Source of the DNA: a phage
Assembly (NCBI GenBank): GCA_033664045.1
Contig: GCA_033664045.1_3674.1
Direction: 5' to 3' (one strand)
DNA: 64,000 bases
Numbering within the stretch: position 1 is the stretch's first letter; the number at the start of each line of letters is the position of its first letter. Shown piece after piece: positions 3-64,000 of the stretch. The translations under genes were made by a program, and so were the position numbers. The notes beneath the pieces were generated by a model. The model searched no databases. It was not told the origin of the DNA and saw only the letters and a program-made list of their open reading frames with translations.

Positions 3-182
3 GATGGTCTAGCCACTTTTGGGTACAGTGACAACATTGATGCAGCCAGAAGCTCGGGTTGGATTGGATTTAAGTTTCAGTGGAACCCTGGTGGTAGAAC
101 ATTAGGTGTTGCAAGCATAGGTGTTATGCTACCTGGTAACCAGCAATACCATCTCGAAGCTTATACAAACTTCCCTAGTTAA
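3..182 (+). CDS. 3' end of a plus-strand gene continuing from upstream of the window (partial, hypothetical)
   Basis: Frame 3 is open from the window edge to TAA at 180-182 (…QWNPGGRTLGVASIGVMLPGNQQYHLEAYTNFPS*); followed by a terminator. Confidence 0.4.
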   Translation, partial: DGLATFGYSDNIDAARSSGWIGFKFQWNPGGRTLGVASIGVMLPGNQQYHLEAYTNFPS

Positions 183-59267: not shown

Positions 59268-60056
59268 TTACTCGGAAACAGGGGTCCAAATATGATTTGC
59301 ACGATCCTCGATAAGATTGAGTGCAATCTGACGACCCAACCCGGAACGAACGACATCATCTGGACTATCAAAGCTGATCATTCCAACCTCAGGATCTGGA
59401 TGGCGAGTAAAGAAATCCGTCACCCATGCAAGGCCAGATTTACCAGGGATGTCACGTTGGCTATTATCGCCCATAATTACAAGGGTGGCCTGATCAGAGA
59501 TCCTTGTGATAATTGACAACATTTCTTCAGGGTTAGTTTGCTGTGCCTCGTCAATCAGGACAAAGCATCGCTCATCGAAACTACGACCACGAATGCTTTC
59601 AACTTCACAAATCTCGATACGGCTGTTCTGACCGTCTCCCAGCATTGCGGCAAAAGCACCTTTGCCAACACGACGACAAATAGTGTCCATCATACTACGA
59701 AGGTAAGGCCAAAGCTTCTGCATTGACGTTCCCGGTTTGTATCCGCTTGATTTTCCGGTCTGTACATAAGGACGTGCAACAATGATCTTATCAATCTCGT
59801 TCTTACGCAGAAGATCACCTGCATATGCAGATGCCATGAACGTCTTACCAGACCCAAACACACCGTTTACAATAATAATCTTACGTGACCCTAGATAATC
59901 AAGATACTTTTGCTGCTTCTTATTCATTGGTCGGAGAGCTGGAGCGGTGTGCTCTCGTTCGTCAGCAAATTTCTCAGCAGCCTTGCGCAAGCGATCAGAT
60001 TTGCGAGCCTCTCTAGCTTCATCACGCATGCGTTTTGTTTCTTTAGCTCGACCCAT
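59268..60056 (-). CDS. phoH: PhoH-like ATPase
   Basis: Walker A GVFGSGKT, Walker B VLIDEAQ; AAAGGAG site. Confidence 0.85.
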   Translation of the reverse strand: MGRAKETKRMRDEAREARKSDRLRKAAEKFADEREHTAPALRPMNKKQQKYLDYLGSRKIIIVNGVFGSGKTFMASAYAGDLLRKNEIDKIIVARPYVQTGKSSGYKPGTSMQKLWPYLRSMMDTICRRVGKGAFAAMLGDGQNSRIEICEVESIRGRSFDERCFVLIDEAQQTNPEEMLSIITRISDQATLVIMGDNSQRDIPGKSGLAWVTDFFTRHPDPEVGMISFDSPDDVVRSGLGRQIALNLIEDRANHIWTPVSE

Positions 60057-60094
60057 GTTGGGACTCCTTTCAGATTGAGATGTGCCAAGTACTT

Positions 60095-60445
60095 TTACTG
60101 CAACAGTTTTTCAATAGCCGCTTCCATGCTGCTTGCAACAGCCTGAACTCGGATATTCATCTCTTCTTGGTGGATCAGCTCCTTAAGCTCTTTAATGGTA
60201 AATTCTTTAGAGAAACCTTCCACCATAATCTTGTGTAAGGCTTCTTGCGTATCTACTTGCAAGAACTTTTCCAGTTTGTCGGCAGAGGCTTCTAAATCAG
60301 CCCGAATACGAGGGTCATCTGTGCGATTCAGCATTAGACGTAAGCCATCAAGATTAGTAGAAATAGCGTCTGCATGTTGAGTAACTAACCGTGGCAAAAT
60401 GAGATCTACAAACTTATTAGCCAAATCGATACGTTCTTGTGTCAC
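60095..60445 (-). CDS. Hypothetical protein
   Basis: Track ORF; GTG start. Confidence 0.45.
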   Translation of the reverse strand: MTQERIDLANKFVDLILPRLVTQHADAISTNLDGLRLMLNRTDDPRIRADLEASADKLEKFLQVDTQEALHKIMVEGFSKEFTIKELKELIHQEEMNIRVQAVASSMEAAIEKLLQ

Positions 60446-60555
60446 TGCTGCACCCCCTCTTCATCCTCATGATGTTTCTTTTCACGCTTGTGTTTTTTCT
60501 TAAGCTCAAGCGCAATCTCTTTTTTGTACGCCTTCTTCAAGGCTTTTTTAGCCAT
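60442..60555 (-). CDS. Lys-rich mini-protein (37 aa)
   Basis: Hand-translated MAKKALKKAYKKEIALELKKKHKREKKHHEDEEGVQQ; GGAGG site 6 nt upstream; stop overlaps the next start. Confidence 0.4.
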   Translation of the reverse strand: MAKKALKKAYKKEIALELKKKHKREKKHHEDEEGVQQ

Positions 60556-60619
60556 TTGGCACCTCCTCTGCTTTCATTTTACGATAATTATACCTATCTA
60601 AACAAAGCTTTGTCAACAA

Positions 60620-61093
60620 CTAGTCTACCTGGACCCAACCGCCTGCTACTTTTTTAAACATTCTTTGGTTATCGCTACCTCGGAACGGTTTCTTGGTTGG
60701 TAAGTCTTTTACATACTTACCGTCAATGATGATATCAGCCAGTTTAAGAACATCACTAGAGATATGGTCAAATGTGAACCCAGTATATACAAGAATAGTT
60801 TTCTTGTCACCAAATTTTTCCTTAATTTTCTCCATCAGACTAATAATATCTGGCTCATTATAGTATGCTAAGGGTTCTCCACCCAGCAGAGAGATACCGC
60901 ACACAGACGGGTTATCTAAATCTGACAAGATTTTTTGCAAGTCTTCTTCAGTAAACTCTCTCCCCTTATCTTTTGACCAAAATGCCTGATTAAAGCAACC
61001 AGGGCAAGCGTGTGGGCACCCAGATACCCATAAGGCAGTTCTAATACCTGGCCCTTCGGTGTAAGATATTTCTGTGTATCCGGCAATGTTCAT
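60620..61093 (-). CDS. nrdG: Anaerobic ribonucleotide reductase activating protein (radical SAM)
   Basis: CPHACPGC radical-SAM cluster motif and GGEP; size and context match NrdG. Confidence 0.85.
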   Translation of the reverse strand: MNIAGYTEISYTEGPGIRTALWVSGCPHACPGCFNQAFWSKDKGREFTEEDLQKILSDLDNPSVCGISLLGGEPLAYYNEPDIISLMEKIKEKFGDKKTILVYTGFTFDHISSDVLKLADIIIDGKYVKDLPTKKPFRGSDNQRMFKKVAGGWVQVD

Positions 61094-61206
61094 AGATACT
61101 CCGCATCACATTTAGGGCAATGCCAAATAAAATCGTCCAGTGCCTTGCACCAACGAAGATTACAATGACAACCGCACTTGCAGATTTTATAGATACCCGA
61201 TGACAT
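61090..61206 (-). CDS. Cys-rich mini-protein (38 aa) coupled to nrdG
   Basis: Hand-translated MSSGIYKICKCGCHCNLRWCKALDDFIWHCPKCDAEYL; AAGGAGGTG site; ATGA overlap with nrdG. Confidence 0.4.
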   Translation of the reverse strand: MSSGIYKICKCGCHCNLRWCKALDDFIWHCPKCDAEYL

Positions 61207-61258
61207 ACTGCACCTCCTTAGTTAATAGCATATTTAAGATATGCATATCTTTCTACGA

Positions 61259-62191
61259 TCATTTACCACAAATCTTCTTGTATACCTCTTCTACCGTGTC
61301 AAACACTTCAGGCCTGTAGTAGAAAAACTCAGTGCTACCGTCAAATTTTACAGGAAAGTTTATTTTATACTTGCTGAAGGCCTTATGCACAGATTTTTCT
61401 AAATCTACCATGTTTTGAGTTGATCCGCTCCATGTTTTTACTACGTGAAGAGTGTGGACACCTGCGCCAGATTTACGAGCACTGTTAAGCACCTCATTTT
61501 TCCTCCTGTGCATTTTAACGCATACACCGATTTTCATAAGTGTTGGCACTTCTAAGTCATCAACCATAATGTAGAGTTTACCGTACTCATGAGATAAGAA
61601 TCCATTTTGTGCGCATTTACAGCAGCCACGACCACTTTTTAGGTTATTAGGTTTAGCAGACCACTTATACCCACAAATTTTGCACCTACATTGCACTTTT
61701 GTGTTATCATTGGCAATTTCCTCTAATATTTCTATATCTGGGTTGGCTTTGTGGATAATTGCAGCATGCTCCTTATGGGTTAACGCTTGACTTTGCCCAC
61801 GTCTTAAGTCATAGCACTCTGGGCAGCCGTTTCTTTGGTATAAGTGGTTTTCAGGGTATTGTTCAAACACACCGTGTTCAGGGCAAACAATTTTTACAGG
61901 CGTTCTCATGTTCACATATTTGACTAATGAGTAATCGTACTTGTCCCCATGAACAGCCATAGCCTCTTTTATGAACTCTTCAGTGTTCTTTTTCGCTGAC
62001 CCACCACACCTTGGACAACCATGCTTCTTGAAAGCATGTGCCACAGGGGTTTGCCAGAACTCACCGTGCTCAGGACAAATTATGCACACAGGTGTCTTGT
62101 TGTTTTTATACTCCACTTTGAAGTAATCATATTTGTCACCATGTATAGTCTGAGCTTTTTCTATAAACTCTTCGGTTGTTAGTCTCCTCAT
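61259..62191 (-). CDS. Free-standing homing endonuclease-like protein (GIY-YIG-like/T5orf172-type C-terminus, two zinc-binding repeats)
   Basis: Two repeats …EEFIxKAxxxHGDKYDYxxVxY…CPEHGxFxQ…GCPxC; C-terminal KLYIM…MKIGV…R…E…H pattern. Confidence 0.55.
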   Translation of the reverse strand: MRRLTTEEFIEKAQTIHGDKYDYFKVEYKNNKTPVCIICPEHGEFWQTPVAHAFKKHGCPRCGGSAKKNTEEFIKEAMAVHGDKYDYSLVKYVNMRTPVKIVCPEHGVFEQYPENHLYQRNGCPECYDLRRGQSQALTHKEHAAIIHKANPDIEILEEIANDNTKVQCRCKICGYKWSAKPNNLKSGRGCCKCAQNGFLSHEYGKLYIMVDDLEVPTLMKIGVCVKMHRRKNEVLNSARKSGAGVHTLHVVKTWSGSTQNMVDLEKSVHKAFSKYKINFPVKFDGSTEFFYYRPEVFDTVEEVYKKICGK

Positions 62192-62230
62192 TACCAGACC
62201 AGACCCTTCCGCTATTCACTTTATATTGCA

Positions 62231-62259
62231 TACTATAGAAAAGAGGAATAGAAGTCAAT
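62231..62259 (-). promoter_or_regulatory. Sigma70-like promoter for the endonuclease gene
   Basis: Minus strand TTGACT, 17-bp spacer, TAGTAT. Confidence 0.45.
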
Positions 62260-62289
62260 AAAAACAAAAATGAGAGCATCCTTGCTCTC
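62253..62289 (-). terminator. Rho-independent terminator after nrdD (minus strand)
   Basis: Minus strand GAGAGCA-AGGA-TGCTCTC followed by ATTTTTGTTTTT. Confidence 0.55.
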
Positions 62290-62300
62290 AATCTCTTTCC

Positions 62301-63602
62301 TTATTTACTCAACGGACAACAGTCTACATTCCCAACATGTTTAACACGTTCGATAACCTCTGCTTGTTTACCTGTGTTATACGGTCTACTGTTCGGGCTG
62401 GAGAGATAGCCAGACACTCTTCGGATCACTGAGATATATTGTTCATCGTGGCATCCACACGCAGGGCAGCAGAACCCTTTAGCTGTTGCACTGAACTCAC
62501 CAGAGAAACCACACTTAAGACATTTATCCACAGGTTGGTTAATACCAAAATACATAATGTGTTTATACCCGAAATCGACAAGGGCTTCCAAAGCATCCAA
62601 GTTGTTTTTCAGGTTAGGTGTTTCTATGTATCCAATGTTGCCGCCAGAAGAGATCATAGCAAAACCTTCCTCATACTTCCACTTATCAAAAGGCGAGCTG
62701 TTGATCCATACTGGCTGATGGAAACTGTTGGTGAGGTATTCATGCTCGTGCTTCAACACTTCTGGGTATTCACGATCCAGACAGGTTGCAGCTTTATAGC
62801 ATAAACTCTCAGAAGGTGTGCCGTACAAGCTAAATGCTAGTCCACTTTCCTTCTTATATCGATCACAAGCATCTTTCATATGCTGAAGGATTCCAAGAGC
62901 TAAAGCCTTGTCACCCTCTCTGCCCAAAATTTGGCAGGTTTCATACACACCAATATACCCAATACTGATGGAAGCGTACCCGTCATAGAAGAGTTTATCG
63001 ATACTCTCTTCAGGATCCAGGCGAGCAAGAGCTCCTTCACACCACATGATAGGGTTCTGCCCAGCCTTGGTGCCTTTCAAACGATTAACTCTTACAAGGT
63101 GAGCCTCATATGCCAAATCCAAGTATTCGTCAAGAACGGCAAAGAAATCAACACCTTCCGTCTTAGCTTTTGCCGCAATCATTGGCAGGTTAAGACTAAC
63201 AACCCCCAAGTTGAATCTGCCGAGGTATTTCTCCTCACCTGTTTCCAAGTCATTGTATTTGCTAAGAAAACTCCGGCAACCCATGCTCGTTACTTTGCCA
63301 TCTGTAGAGCCTGTCACTTTACGATTTAGTGGAACAGAAACAAAGTCAGGATAAATCCGCTCTGCAGAGCATTCCAGAGCTAATCGTTTCAAATCATAGT
63401 TAGGATCTCCAGGGTTCATGTTGACACCTTCTTCTAGGAAGAACAGCACTTTAGGGAACACAGGTGTGATACGTTCTTCACCAAGACCCATTTTGTGGAC
63501 TTTCAAGTAGTTTTTGGTAATCATTCTACCAAATACTGAGGTGTCCAGACCTAAACTTAATGTGATGAATGGAGTCTGCTGTCTCCTCCCCTGTGTTTCC
63601 AC
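62301..63602 (-). CDS. nrdD: Anaerobic ribonucleoside-triphosphate reductase, C-terminal portion only
   Basis: C-terminal zinc ribbon CLKCG…CPACGC and glycyl-radical motif RRVSGYLS; ORF begins at a GTG three codons after an in-frame stop and is shorter than a complete NrdD. Confidence 0.8.
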   Translation of the reverse strand: METQGRRQQTPFITLSLGLDTSVFGRMITKNYLKVHKMGLGEERITPVFPKVLFFLEEGVNMNPGDPNYDLKRLALECSAERIYPDFVSVPLNRKVTGSTDGKVTSMGCRSFLSKYNDLETGEEKYLGRFNLGVVSLNLPMIAAKAKTEGVDFFAVLDEYLDLAYEAHLVRVNRLKGTKAGQNPIMWCEGALARLDPEESIDKLFYDGYASISIGYIGVYETCQILGREGDKALALGILQHMKDACDRYKKESGLAFSLYGTPSESLCYKAATCLDREYPEVLKHEHEYLTNSFHQPVWINSSPFDKWKYEEGFAMISSGGNIGYIETPNLKNNLDALEALVDFGYKHIMYFGINQPVDKCLKCGFSGEFSATAKGFCCPACGCHDEQYISVIRRVSGYLSSPNSRPYNTGKQAEVIERVKHVGNVDCCPLSK

Positions 63603-63618
63603 AGGGCCAGACTATCTC

Positions 63619-63951
63619 TTACTCTACTTCAATAAGATAATAACCCTTTATTGTGAGATGCTTACCTTCGGCATTTCCTTCGATAGCCCTATGAACGTTA
63701 CCTACGTTCAAATTTAAGGCTTTTGCACAGGCATAGAGTGAAGGATATTCACCCACCAAGGTTTTCCCTTTGTATGCCTGCACTTTCCTATAGCACTTGC
63801 CTGGGCAAAGCCCTGTTCGGAAAGCATGTCTCTTATTATCTTCCGGCAAAACCCACTCTAGGTTAGACGGATGATCATTCAATGTATTGCCGTCTTTATG
63901 ATTCACTTCCCAGTTTTCAGGGTCTTCTGGGACATCTGGCAAACAATACAA
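63619..63951 (-). CDS. HNH homing endonuclease
   Basis: WEVNHKDGNTLNDHPSNLEWV HNH motif; ends 16 nt before the nrdD fragment, in a different frame. Confidence 0.7.
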   Translation of the reverse strand: MYCLPDVPEDPENWEVNHKDGNTLNDHPSNLEWVLPEDNKRHAFRTGLCPGKCYRKVQAYKGKTLVGEYPSLYACAKALNLNVGNVHRAIEGNAEGKHLTIKGYYLIEVE

Positions 63952-64000
63952 GGCAACAATCCTTGAGGTTTGGATTCGAATCTTTTTACCTTTGTGGTTG

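Follow-up and report, generated by a model that had tools for sequence, protein, structure and literature searches.

The question raised by this locus is how a phage can carry a class III ribonucleotide reductase gene, nrdD, of which only the C-terminal part is seen, directly behind a homing endonuclease gene in another frame. The locus lies at one end of a 64,000-nucleotide (nt) phage sequence (GenBank assembly GCA_033664045.1, contig GCA_033664045.1_3674.1), the whole of which is called the window here. An initial annotation made from the letters of the window had proposed that nrdD is either split or carries an intron in which an endonuclease open reading frame (ORF) resides. The intron half of that proposal is borne out by the exact boundaries of the insert, by a group I core and by the frame that is restored when the insert is removed, while the split-gene half is not supported, given the ribozyme core and the occurrence of the same intron in a form that has no ORF. 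At a probability of about 0.9, a 798-nt group I intron interrupts nrdD, a free-standing homing-endonuclease-like gene is its neighbour, and splicing of the pre-mRNA would restore a single NrdD protein.

An interrupted nrdD and its alleles

By sequence the window DNA is assigned to Vequintavirus, the rV5-like myophages of E. coli; in a megablast search against phage genomes, 120 Vequintavirus records match the locus at 90-97% identity. All relevant genes of the locus lie on the minus strand, on which the class III ribonucleotide reductase operon runs from nrdD through a small ORF to nrdG. The features of the initial annotation are all found where it had placed them, as judged by ORF reading and Pfam, and the proteins have the parts of a class III reductase and its activase, i.e., the barrel, zinc ribbon and glycyl-radical motif of NrdD (NRDD, E 1e-111; Gly_radical, E 4e-24) and the activase NrdG (Fer4_12, E 9e-43). 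Three of these features bear directly on the question:

62301..63578, minus strand: nrdD exon 2, 1278 nt, 425 codons plus stop, beginning QTPFITL…, with the zinc ribbon and the glycyl-radical motif
63579..64000, minus strand: 3' 422 nt of the 798-nt group I intron in nrdD, whose full extent is equivalent to window positions 64376..63579
63619..64000, minus strand: HNH homing endonuclease gene, I-HmuI-like, C-terminal 126 codons plus stop (TAA 63621..63619); the full ORF has 177 amino acids (aa) and starts at the equivalent of window position 64152

The nrdD ORF of the window, 63602..62301, had been described as the C-terminal part of the gene, and this agrees with its match to NRDD, which covers profile positions 155-562 only, and to Gly_radical. 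It had also been said to begin at a GTG three codons after an in-frame stop. The stop is indeed present (TAG at 63614..63612), and so is the ORF with a GTG at 63602; however, this GTG cannot be retained as the start codon, as it lies within the P9 hairpin of the intron, and exon 2 starts at 63578. The HNH gene was correctly placed directly upstream in a different frame, but its apparent start at 63951 is not its real one: the ORF continues past the window end and has 177 codons in L129, the contig described below, and in related phages.

L129 is a public 79.6-kb contig (Logan SRR26825137_44) that was retrieved via the exact 310-aa protein encoded between nrdD and nrdG. Compared with window positions 64000..60000, it shows 0 mismatches in 4001 nt, and it supplies the sequence past 64000, namely nrdD exon 1, the 5' half of the intron and the whole HNH ORF. 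Immediately upstream of the HNH gene, beyond the window end as predicted, L129 carries the N-terminal part of nrdD (287 codons with ATP-cone and NRDD), which in turn is preceded by a glutaredoxin gene, nrdB and nrdA; a full nrdD is not found elsewhere. In-silico removal of 798 nt from L129 leaves one open frame of 712 codons that reads …SVNG|QTPF… across the junction …GGT|CAG…, and the resulting 712-aa protein is identical to the uninterrupted NrdD of phage I29 at 701 of 712 residues. The insertion is thus in phase 0, after the Gly287 codon. That an assembly or window artefact had joined unrelated pieces has nothing in its favour beyond the truncation at the window edge, and the same arrangement in dozens of independently sequenced complete genomes, together with the identical 79.6-kb contig, allows this explanation to be excluded.

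The boundaries of the insert were obtained by alignment to intron-less alleles, giving …GTCAACGGT|TAACAAACTGG… at the 5' end and …GGAGACAG|CAGACTCC… at the 3' end, where intron-less nrdD of the I29 type reads …AACGGGCAAACTCC… without interruption. Consistent with this, genomes that have no intron match in megablast only from query position 422 onwards, corresponding to window position 63579. A 1200-nt junction probe spans 1200, 1457 or 1997/1998 nt depending on the genome, and it sorts the ~120 records into three alleles at exactly one site. In I29 and ~77 other records nrdD is uninterrupted and encodes 712 aa; 14 records, e.g., CM1 and HeinrichReichert, carry a 257-nt intron that has no ORF; and 28 records, e.g., nomine, FV3, FFH2 and WalterGehring, carry a 797/798-nt intron with the HNH gene. 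The intron is thus patchy (35% of records), and the insert is precisely absent from homologous alleles, its removal restoring a conserved frame, as expected of a group I intron. An intein was considered and rejected, since stop codons occur in the insert and its definition is one at the level of RNA.

In the GenBank records of the BASEL phages, nrdD is already given as a two-piece join that encloses a 'putative homing endonuclease', with a spliced length of 1911 nt for both the 797-nt and the 257-nt forms; in the BASEL paper, the intron boundaries were set by comparative annotation (PMC8594841).

A further interruption of nrdD was observed in phage JEP1 (MT740314; L132 2872..3669, minus strand), where a second 798-nt group I intron with another HNH gene is inserted at …TSMG|CRSF…, just before the codon of a conserved Cys. 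The core of this second intron closely resembles that of T4 (RF00028, 32.9 bits, E 2e-6), and the equivalent window site, 63279|63278, is uninterrupted. Three-piece matches to the nrdD region of the window occur in at least 2 further records.

A group I ribozyme with an HNH gene in P8

From its sequence, the intron is assigned to a class that is IA2-like, with a layout closest to that of the T4 nrdD (sunY) intron. The initial annotation had advised a search of the junction for group I core elements, and such a core was found there, homologous in layout to the T4 intron. The following elements of it lie within the window:

63621..63627, minus strand: 3' strand of P8, GUAGAGU, which pairs with GCUCUAU beyond the window (7/7 in nomine and L129)
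63610..63620, minus strand: J8/7 (AAGAGA) and the 3' strand of P7 (UAGUC), which make up the 'S' element conserved in the catalytic core
63589..63606, minus strand: P9 hairpin CCCUGUG-GAAA-CACAGGG, 7/7 pairs, with the GTG at 63602 in its 5' arm
63579..63588, minus strand: intron tail with omega-G
63579, minus strand: omega-G, the terminal intron base; the 3' splice site is between 63579 and 63578

Both ends of the insert have the features of a group I intron. U is the last base of the 5' exon, and P1, which was read from L129 outside the window, pairs 7/7 as CAACGGU/GCCGUUG with a terminal U·G; the intron ends …GGAGACAG|CAGACU, with G as its last base. Between the ends, a model could be drawn that includes P3, P4, P5, P6/6a, P7, P7.1, P7.2, P8 and P9; each helix has 5-8 pairs, and pairing is full or nearly so throughout. 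In this intron and in T4 sunY alike, the order is P4 (ACGGGG/UCCCGU, with AA in J4/5 and CAAU in J5/4), P6/P6a, AAC-GACUA (P7), P7.1, GUA and P7.2, followed by GAAAC, the 3' strand of P3, P8, AAGAGA-UAGUC (J8/7-P7) and the P9 hairpin. This helix model was built by hand from homology with T4 sunY (NC_000866) and is not an independent prediction. Its joining segments match those of T4 sunY at UAAAA-P3-UAA, ACGGGGAA, CAAUCCCGU, AACGACUA, GAAAC-P3' and AAGAGAUAGUC. For the J8/7-P7 element, there is in addition an alignment of high posterior probability to AAGAUAUAGUC of the Rfam consensus, and the element is nearly identical in T4 sunY.

Comparison of the ORF-less and the HNH-containing lineages showed compensatory changes in four helices. 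In P1 the change is from A-U to C-G, between the exon and the internal guide, the ORF-less lineage having AAACGGU/GCCGUUU. P3 is CUCUGC/GCAGGG in one lineage and CUCUCC/GGAGAG in the other, one of two extra hairpins changes from A-U to G-C, and P9 changes from U-A to C-G, with CCUUGUG/CAUAAGG in the ORF-less lineage. P7.1, P7.2 and P8 are replaced wholesale between the lineages with their hairpins retained. The two extra hairpins, CCUC-AUAA-GAGG and GUCGG-UAAAU-CCGGC, lie between the 5' strand of P3 and J3/4-P4 (L129 3847..3876; intron nt 32..59). For the 5' strand of P3 itself, both Rfam and a plain alignment with sunY had suggested GCUGGC, which is the 3' arm of the second extra hairpin. However, GCUGGC pairs poorly with GCAGGG/GGAGAG, and it was dropped because CUCUGC/CUCUCC pairs 6/6 and covaries.

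The only Rfam family that matches is RF00028 (Group I catalytic intron), with 27.7 bits for the window (E 4.6e-4), 27.7 bits for nomine and 29.3 bits for the ORF-less CM1 intron (E 1.8e-5). In the HNH-containing form, the 5' part of the cmscan alignment falls inside the ORF and is spurious, and the 5' half of the intron was instead set by comparison with the ORF-less allele.

Several points weigh against the proposed intron. Its scores of 27.7-29.3 bits do not reach the RF00028 gathering threshold of 50 bits, while the T4 sunY control scores 105 bits; the whole window gave no match to Rfam at the gathering threshold, and the 5' half of the intron alone gave no match to Rfam either. Rfam alone is therefore insufficient. 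The compensatory changes come from two diverged intron lineages only, which limits their support, and in pattern scans of IMG/VR for the P4-P5 core, which returned at least 120 loci, none of the loci listed is like this intron beyond ~45 nt, and no covariation was added. The model also needs two hairpins between P3 and P4 that T4 sunY lacks and that are not confirmed as a known peripheral element. Finally, exon 1 and the 5' half of the intron lie outside the window and were read from the identical contig L129. The low Rfam score is probably due in part to the two hairpins. It is also conceivable, though improbable, that they are a peripheral element undescribed for T4-type IA2 introns.

The scans of IMG/VR gave an observation of their own. 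The core P4/J4-5/P4', AACGGGGAA…AATCCCGTG, occurs in at least 120 viral contigs (L010-L128), and, judged by this sequence pattern, uncultivated phages very commonly have introns with a T4-type core of this kind.

The HNH ORF lies wholly in the P8 loop, the AU of its AUG being in the 5' strand of P8 (GCUCUAU) and its UAA overlapping the 3' strand (GUAGAGU) by one base. Its protein combines an HNH motif with a DNA-binding module. In Pfam it matches HNH_3 with 29.8 bits (cutoff 24.8) and I-HmuI_NUMOD-like with 18.6 bits, below the cutoff of 27; it matches phrog_59, HNH endonuclease, with E 1.5e-26; and it aligns over its full length with I-HmuI of PDB 1U3E (E 2.7e-4), with the motif HKDGN…NL.WV…N kept. 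Among five alleles, all ORFs are intact, 20 of 22 variable sites are at third codon positions, and 20 codons vary by synonymous changes only, as against 2 with amino-acid changes. The HNH protein is therefore maintained by selection. A scan of the intron for a sigma-70 promoter of the HNH gene yielded TTGACA-17-TAGTGT, which did not pass, and no promoter is claimed.

These data also bear on two other explanations of the locus. According to the first, the ribozyme has decayed and no longer splices, nrdD is a pseudogene, and the phage relies on its class I NrdAB. The Rfam scores would fit such decay, and NrdA, NrdB and glutaredoxin are encoded just upstream. However, both exons are intact and encode a protein 98% identical to the uninterrupted allele, the intron helices are fully paired with compensatory changes, purifying selection acts on the HNH ORF, and 42 independent isolates have the intron fixed, all of which makes decay very improbable.

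According to the second, nrdD is a gene in pieces: no splicing takes place, and two NrdD polypeptides are produced and then reassemble, like NrdA of Aeromonas phage Aeh1, whose gene is split by mobE. This explanation predicts neither a complete group I core with its U·G and omega-G nor an ORF-less version of the insert, 257 nt long, at the same site. The Aeh1 insert is reportedly a bare endonuclease gene that has no ribozyme. The downstream fragment would have as its only candidate start the GTG that is buried in the stem of P9, a convincing Shine-Dalgarno sequence for this GTG is lacking, and the split would fall inside the conserved NGQTPF segment of NrdD. On the other side, exon 1 is followed by an in-frame UAA (the first three bases of the intron), exon 2 is covered by an ORF that has a GTG start, many GenBank records annotate two nrdD coding sequences, and a non-splicing HNH 'intron' has been reported in a related member of the subfamily (PMC7344957). 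Because the HNH gene here lies inside a group I ribozyme with precise boundaries, and because the intron also exists as an ORF-less form, splicing rather than protein reassembly is expected, unlike in Aeh1, and we regard two reassembling polypeptides as improbable.

For the intron, we infer the following course from the anatomy of the locus. The nrdD pre-mRNA would self-splice: guanosine would attack just behind the U whose U·G pair closes P1 (CAACGGU/GCCGUUG), and the exons would be ligated after the terminal G at 63579 to encode a single 712-aa NrdD. The AUG and the UAA of the HNH gene lie in the two strands of P8, so that endonuclease translation should compete with ribozyme folding. In a mixed infection, the HNH enzyme would nick or cut intron-less nrdD near the insertion site, and repair would copy the intron in, i.e., homing.

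The genes between nrdD and nrdG

The intron and its HNH gene are not the only selfish element of this operon; a free-standing T5orf172 endonuclease-like gene is the second, and the two are independent. The initial annotation had placed a second endonuclease-like gene with its own promoter between nrdD and nrdG, as well as a 38-aa Cys-rich ORF coupled to nrdG, and the corresponding features are as follows:

62319..62438, minus strand: divergent nrdD 3' end, which co-travels with the 310-aa gene; the C-terminal peptide differs from that of HeinrichReichert
62271..62290, minus strand: terminator-like hairpin upstream of the 310-aa ORF
62230..62258, minus strand: sigma-70-like TTGACT-17-TAGTAT, 9/12 matches, a promoter-like consensus match only
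61259..62191, minus strand: 310-aa homing-endonuclease-like gene, three zinc-finger repeats of the DUF723/CapR type and a C-terminal T5orf172 nuclease domain (GIY-YIG superfamily)
61090..61206, minus strand: 38-aa ORF with 9 Cys, overlapping the nrdG start (61093) in ATGA
60620..61093, minus strand: nrdG, radical S-adenosylmethionine activase of the class III reductase (Pfam Fer4_12, as above, and Radical_SAM)

The 310-aa ORF and a promoter-like consensus before it are both present as described. In Pfam the protein matches T5orf172 with 30.5 bits (cutoff 20), DUF723 with 50.2, CapR with 40.3 and DUF4379 with 39.9; it also matches phrog_681 'endonuclease' (E 7e-66), and a sequence search of the PDB with it returned no match. 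Relatives were identified in 641 phage records, frequently as multiple copies, and this allele (at least 95% identity) occurs in 19, being specific to Vequintavirus. The class of T5orf172 genes with CapR/DUF723-type repeats was described by Barth et al. in 2023, who reported that 33% of such genes adjoin ribonucleotide reductase genes (PMC10448857).

Among near-identical genomes, the gene is polymorphic at one intergenic site, with diverged flanks. It is present in the window, in I29 and in nomine; in HeinrichReichert nrdD is directly followed by the 38-aa ORF and nrdG; and in WalterGehring a 53%-identical paralogue stands in its place. The CM1 copy (L002 5437..6246, annotated as a coding sequence of 810 nt) has one extra A in an A-run and hence a frameshift, by which it looks like a decaying copy. 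The terminator-like hairpin and the promoter-like site belong to the inserted cassette and are absent from the HeinrichReichert-type allele. The identity of nrdD to that of the gene-less HeinrichReichert falls from ~93-97% to 82% and then to 67% over the last 120 nt, the HeinrichReichert-type 3' end reading …AAGCACTACGGAAGTTGTGGTTGCTGA. This divergent 3' end is presumably an altered target site or a co-conversion tract, and divergence in nrdD beside the 310-aa gene is the pattern expected of a free-standing homing endonuclease gene that would target the adjacent gene. In phages that do not have the 310-aa gene, the 3' end of nrdD is most likely the site that its protein cuts, and the gene would spread by co-conversion. 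The T-run after the terminator-like hairpin of nrdD (62262..62270, minus strand, and the equivalent positions of L003 and L002) was seen to differ in length among genomes, the window having 5 T and I29 as many as 14.

The coupling of the 38-aa ORF to nrdG was confirmed as an ATGA overlap between 61206..61090 and the nrdG start. This ORF is present in all Vequintavirus records (>120) and has a PHROG of its own, phrog_20137. It shows 14 codons with only synonymous variation as against 3 with amino-acid changes, and all nine Cys are invariant; given this purifying selection and conservation, it is therefore a real gene. In a library-wide search with it, the matches were limited to two close relatives of 41 and 54 aa, a fusion variant and two false positives of repetitive sequence, which confines the ORF to Vequintavirus and these two relatives. 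One could imagine that the ORF is no mere filler and that its product binds metal as a small, so far unrecognised partner of the class III reductase or of the activase, but we consider this unlikely. The records name the ORF 'ribonucleotide reductase', 'minor capsid protein' or 'hypothetical protein'. In nomine (L001 6917..7300) and WalterGehring (L004 6356..6738), ~390 extra bases lie between the 38-aa ORF and nrdG; they contain a 78-aa ORF (phrog_3249), nrdG has a different 5' end, and the ATGA coupling is broken. The library protein P0005 is a fusion of the first 21 residues of the 38-aa ORF with the tail of the 78-aa ORF.

Directly downstream of nrdG, before the next small ORFs, a perfect sigma-70 consensus, TTGACA-18-TATAAT (12/12), was noted at 60587..60616 on the minus strand. 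Also noted were 18 GenBank records of the MG0656xx series labelled 'Campylobacter phage' (host C. jejuni), which are 96-97% identical to E. coli Vequintaviruses at this locus; their Campylobacter host labels look doubtful.

Comparison with known systems and significance

The closest known counterpart of this locus is that of phage T4, which has the same operon layout, a group IA intron with I-TevII in nrdD and the free-standing mobC between nrdD and nrdG (PMC2988022). T4 NrdD is ~45% identical to the phage NrdD described here. Like this intron, T4 sunY starts with UAAC, has no P2, contains UAAAA-P3-UAA and P7.1/P7.2, and has a near-identical J8/7-P7; the overall sequence similarity of the two introns is low (alignment z ~4-5). 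The present insertion is 32 nt downstream of the T4 site, i.e., after Gly287 rather than within a Tyr codon 10 residues earlier, and two extra hairpins stand where in T4 sunY P4 follows P3 directly. Between the two phages, the families of endonuclease have changed places: here an I-HmuI-like HNH gene in P8 is joined by a free-standing gene of the T5orf172 type (GIY-YIG superfamily), whereas T4 has the GIY-YIG enzyme I-TevII encoded downstream of P9 and the HNH gene mobC.

The intron-encoded enzyme resembles I-HmuI from the DNA polymerase intron of Bacillus phage SPO1 (PDB 1U3E) in length (174 aa for I-HmuI, 177 here), in its HNH motif with a NUMOD-like tail and in being encoded by an intron. 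However, the similarity is distant only (E 2.7e-4), and the host gene and the phage are different; the SPO1 enzyme nicks its target. The free-standing gene shares with the T5orf172 genes of ICP1 and other phages the domain architecture, the preference for ribonucleotide reductase neighbourhoods and the position at a divergence boundary (PMC10448857). In the Aeh1 nrdA/mobE locus, the large-subunit gene of a ribonucleotide reductase is likewise interrupted by an HNH gene, and annotators list two coding sequences.

Within the same subfamily, a group I intron with an HNH gene has been reported in the rV5 terminase gene (PMC3606486), and in Pectobacterium phage CB7 introns in terL, pol, nrdA and nrdB were proven to splice by reverse transcription PCR (PMC7344957). 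In contrast, nrdD of CB7 is uninterrupted, and neither of these two papers describes an nrdD intron. In the literature, no paper characterising the present nrdD intron was found.

The finding is real but ordinary: this is a T4-like pair of selfish elements, and the intron is already annotated in public records. Its value is mainly one of annotation, as many rV5-like records list two 'nrdD' genes and a stray HNH gene for what is one intron-containing gene, and the GTG start is an artefact derived from the window. No new question is opened, and the locus is an independent repeat of the lesson of T4 that ribonucleotide reductase genes are preferred targets of selfish endonucleases. For a phage genus that is used therapeutically, the locus provides a neat natural series in which the life cycle of such homing elements can be studied, comprising nrdD alleles with no intron, with an ORF-less intron, with an HNH intron and with a second intron (JEP1), together with three states of the T5orf172 gene.

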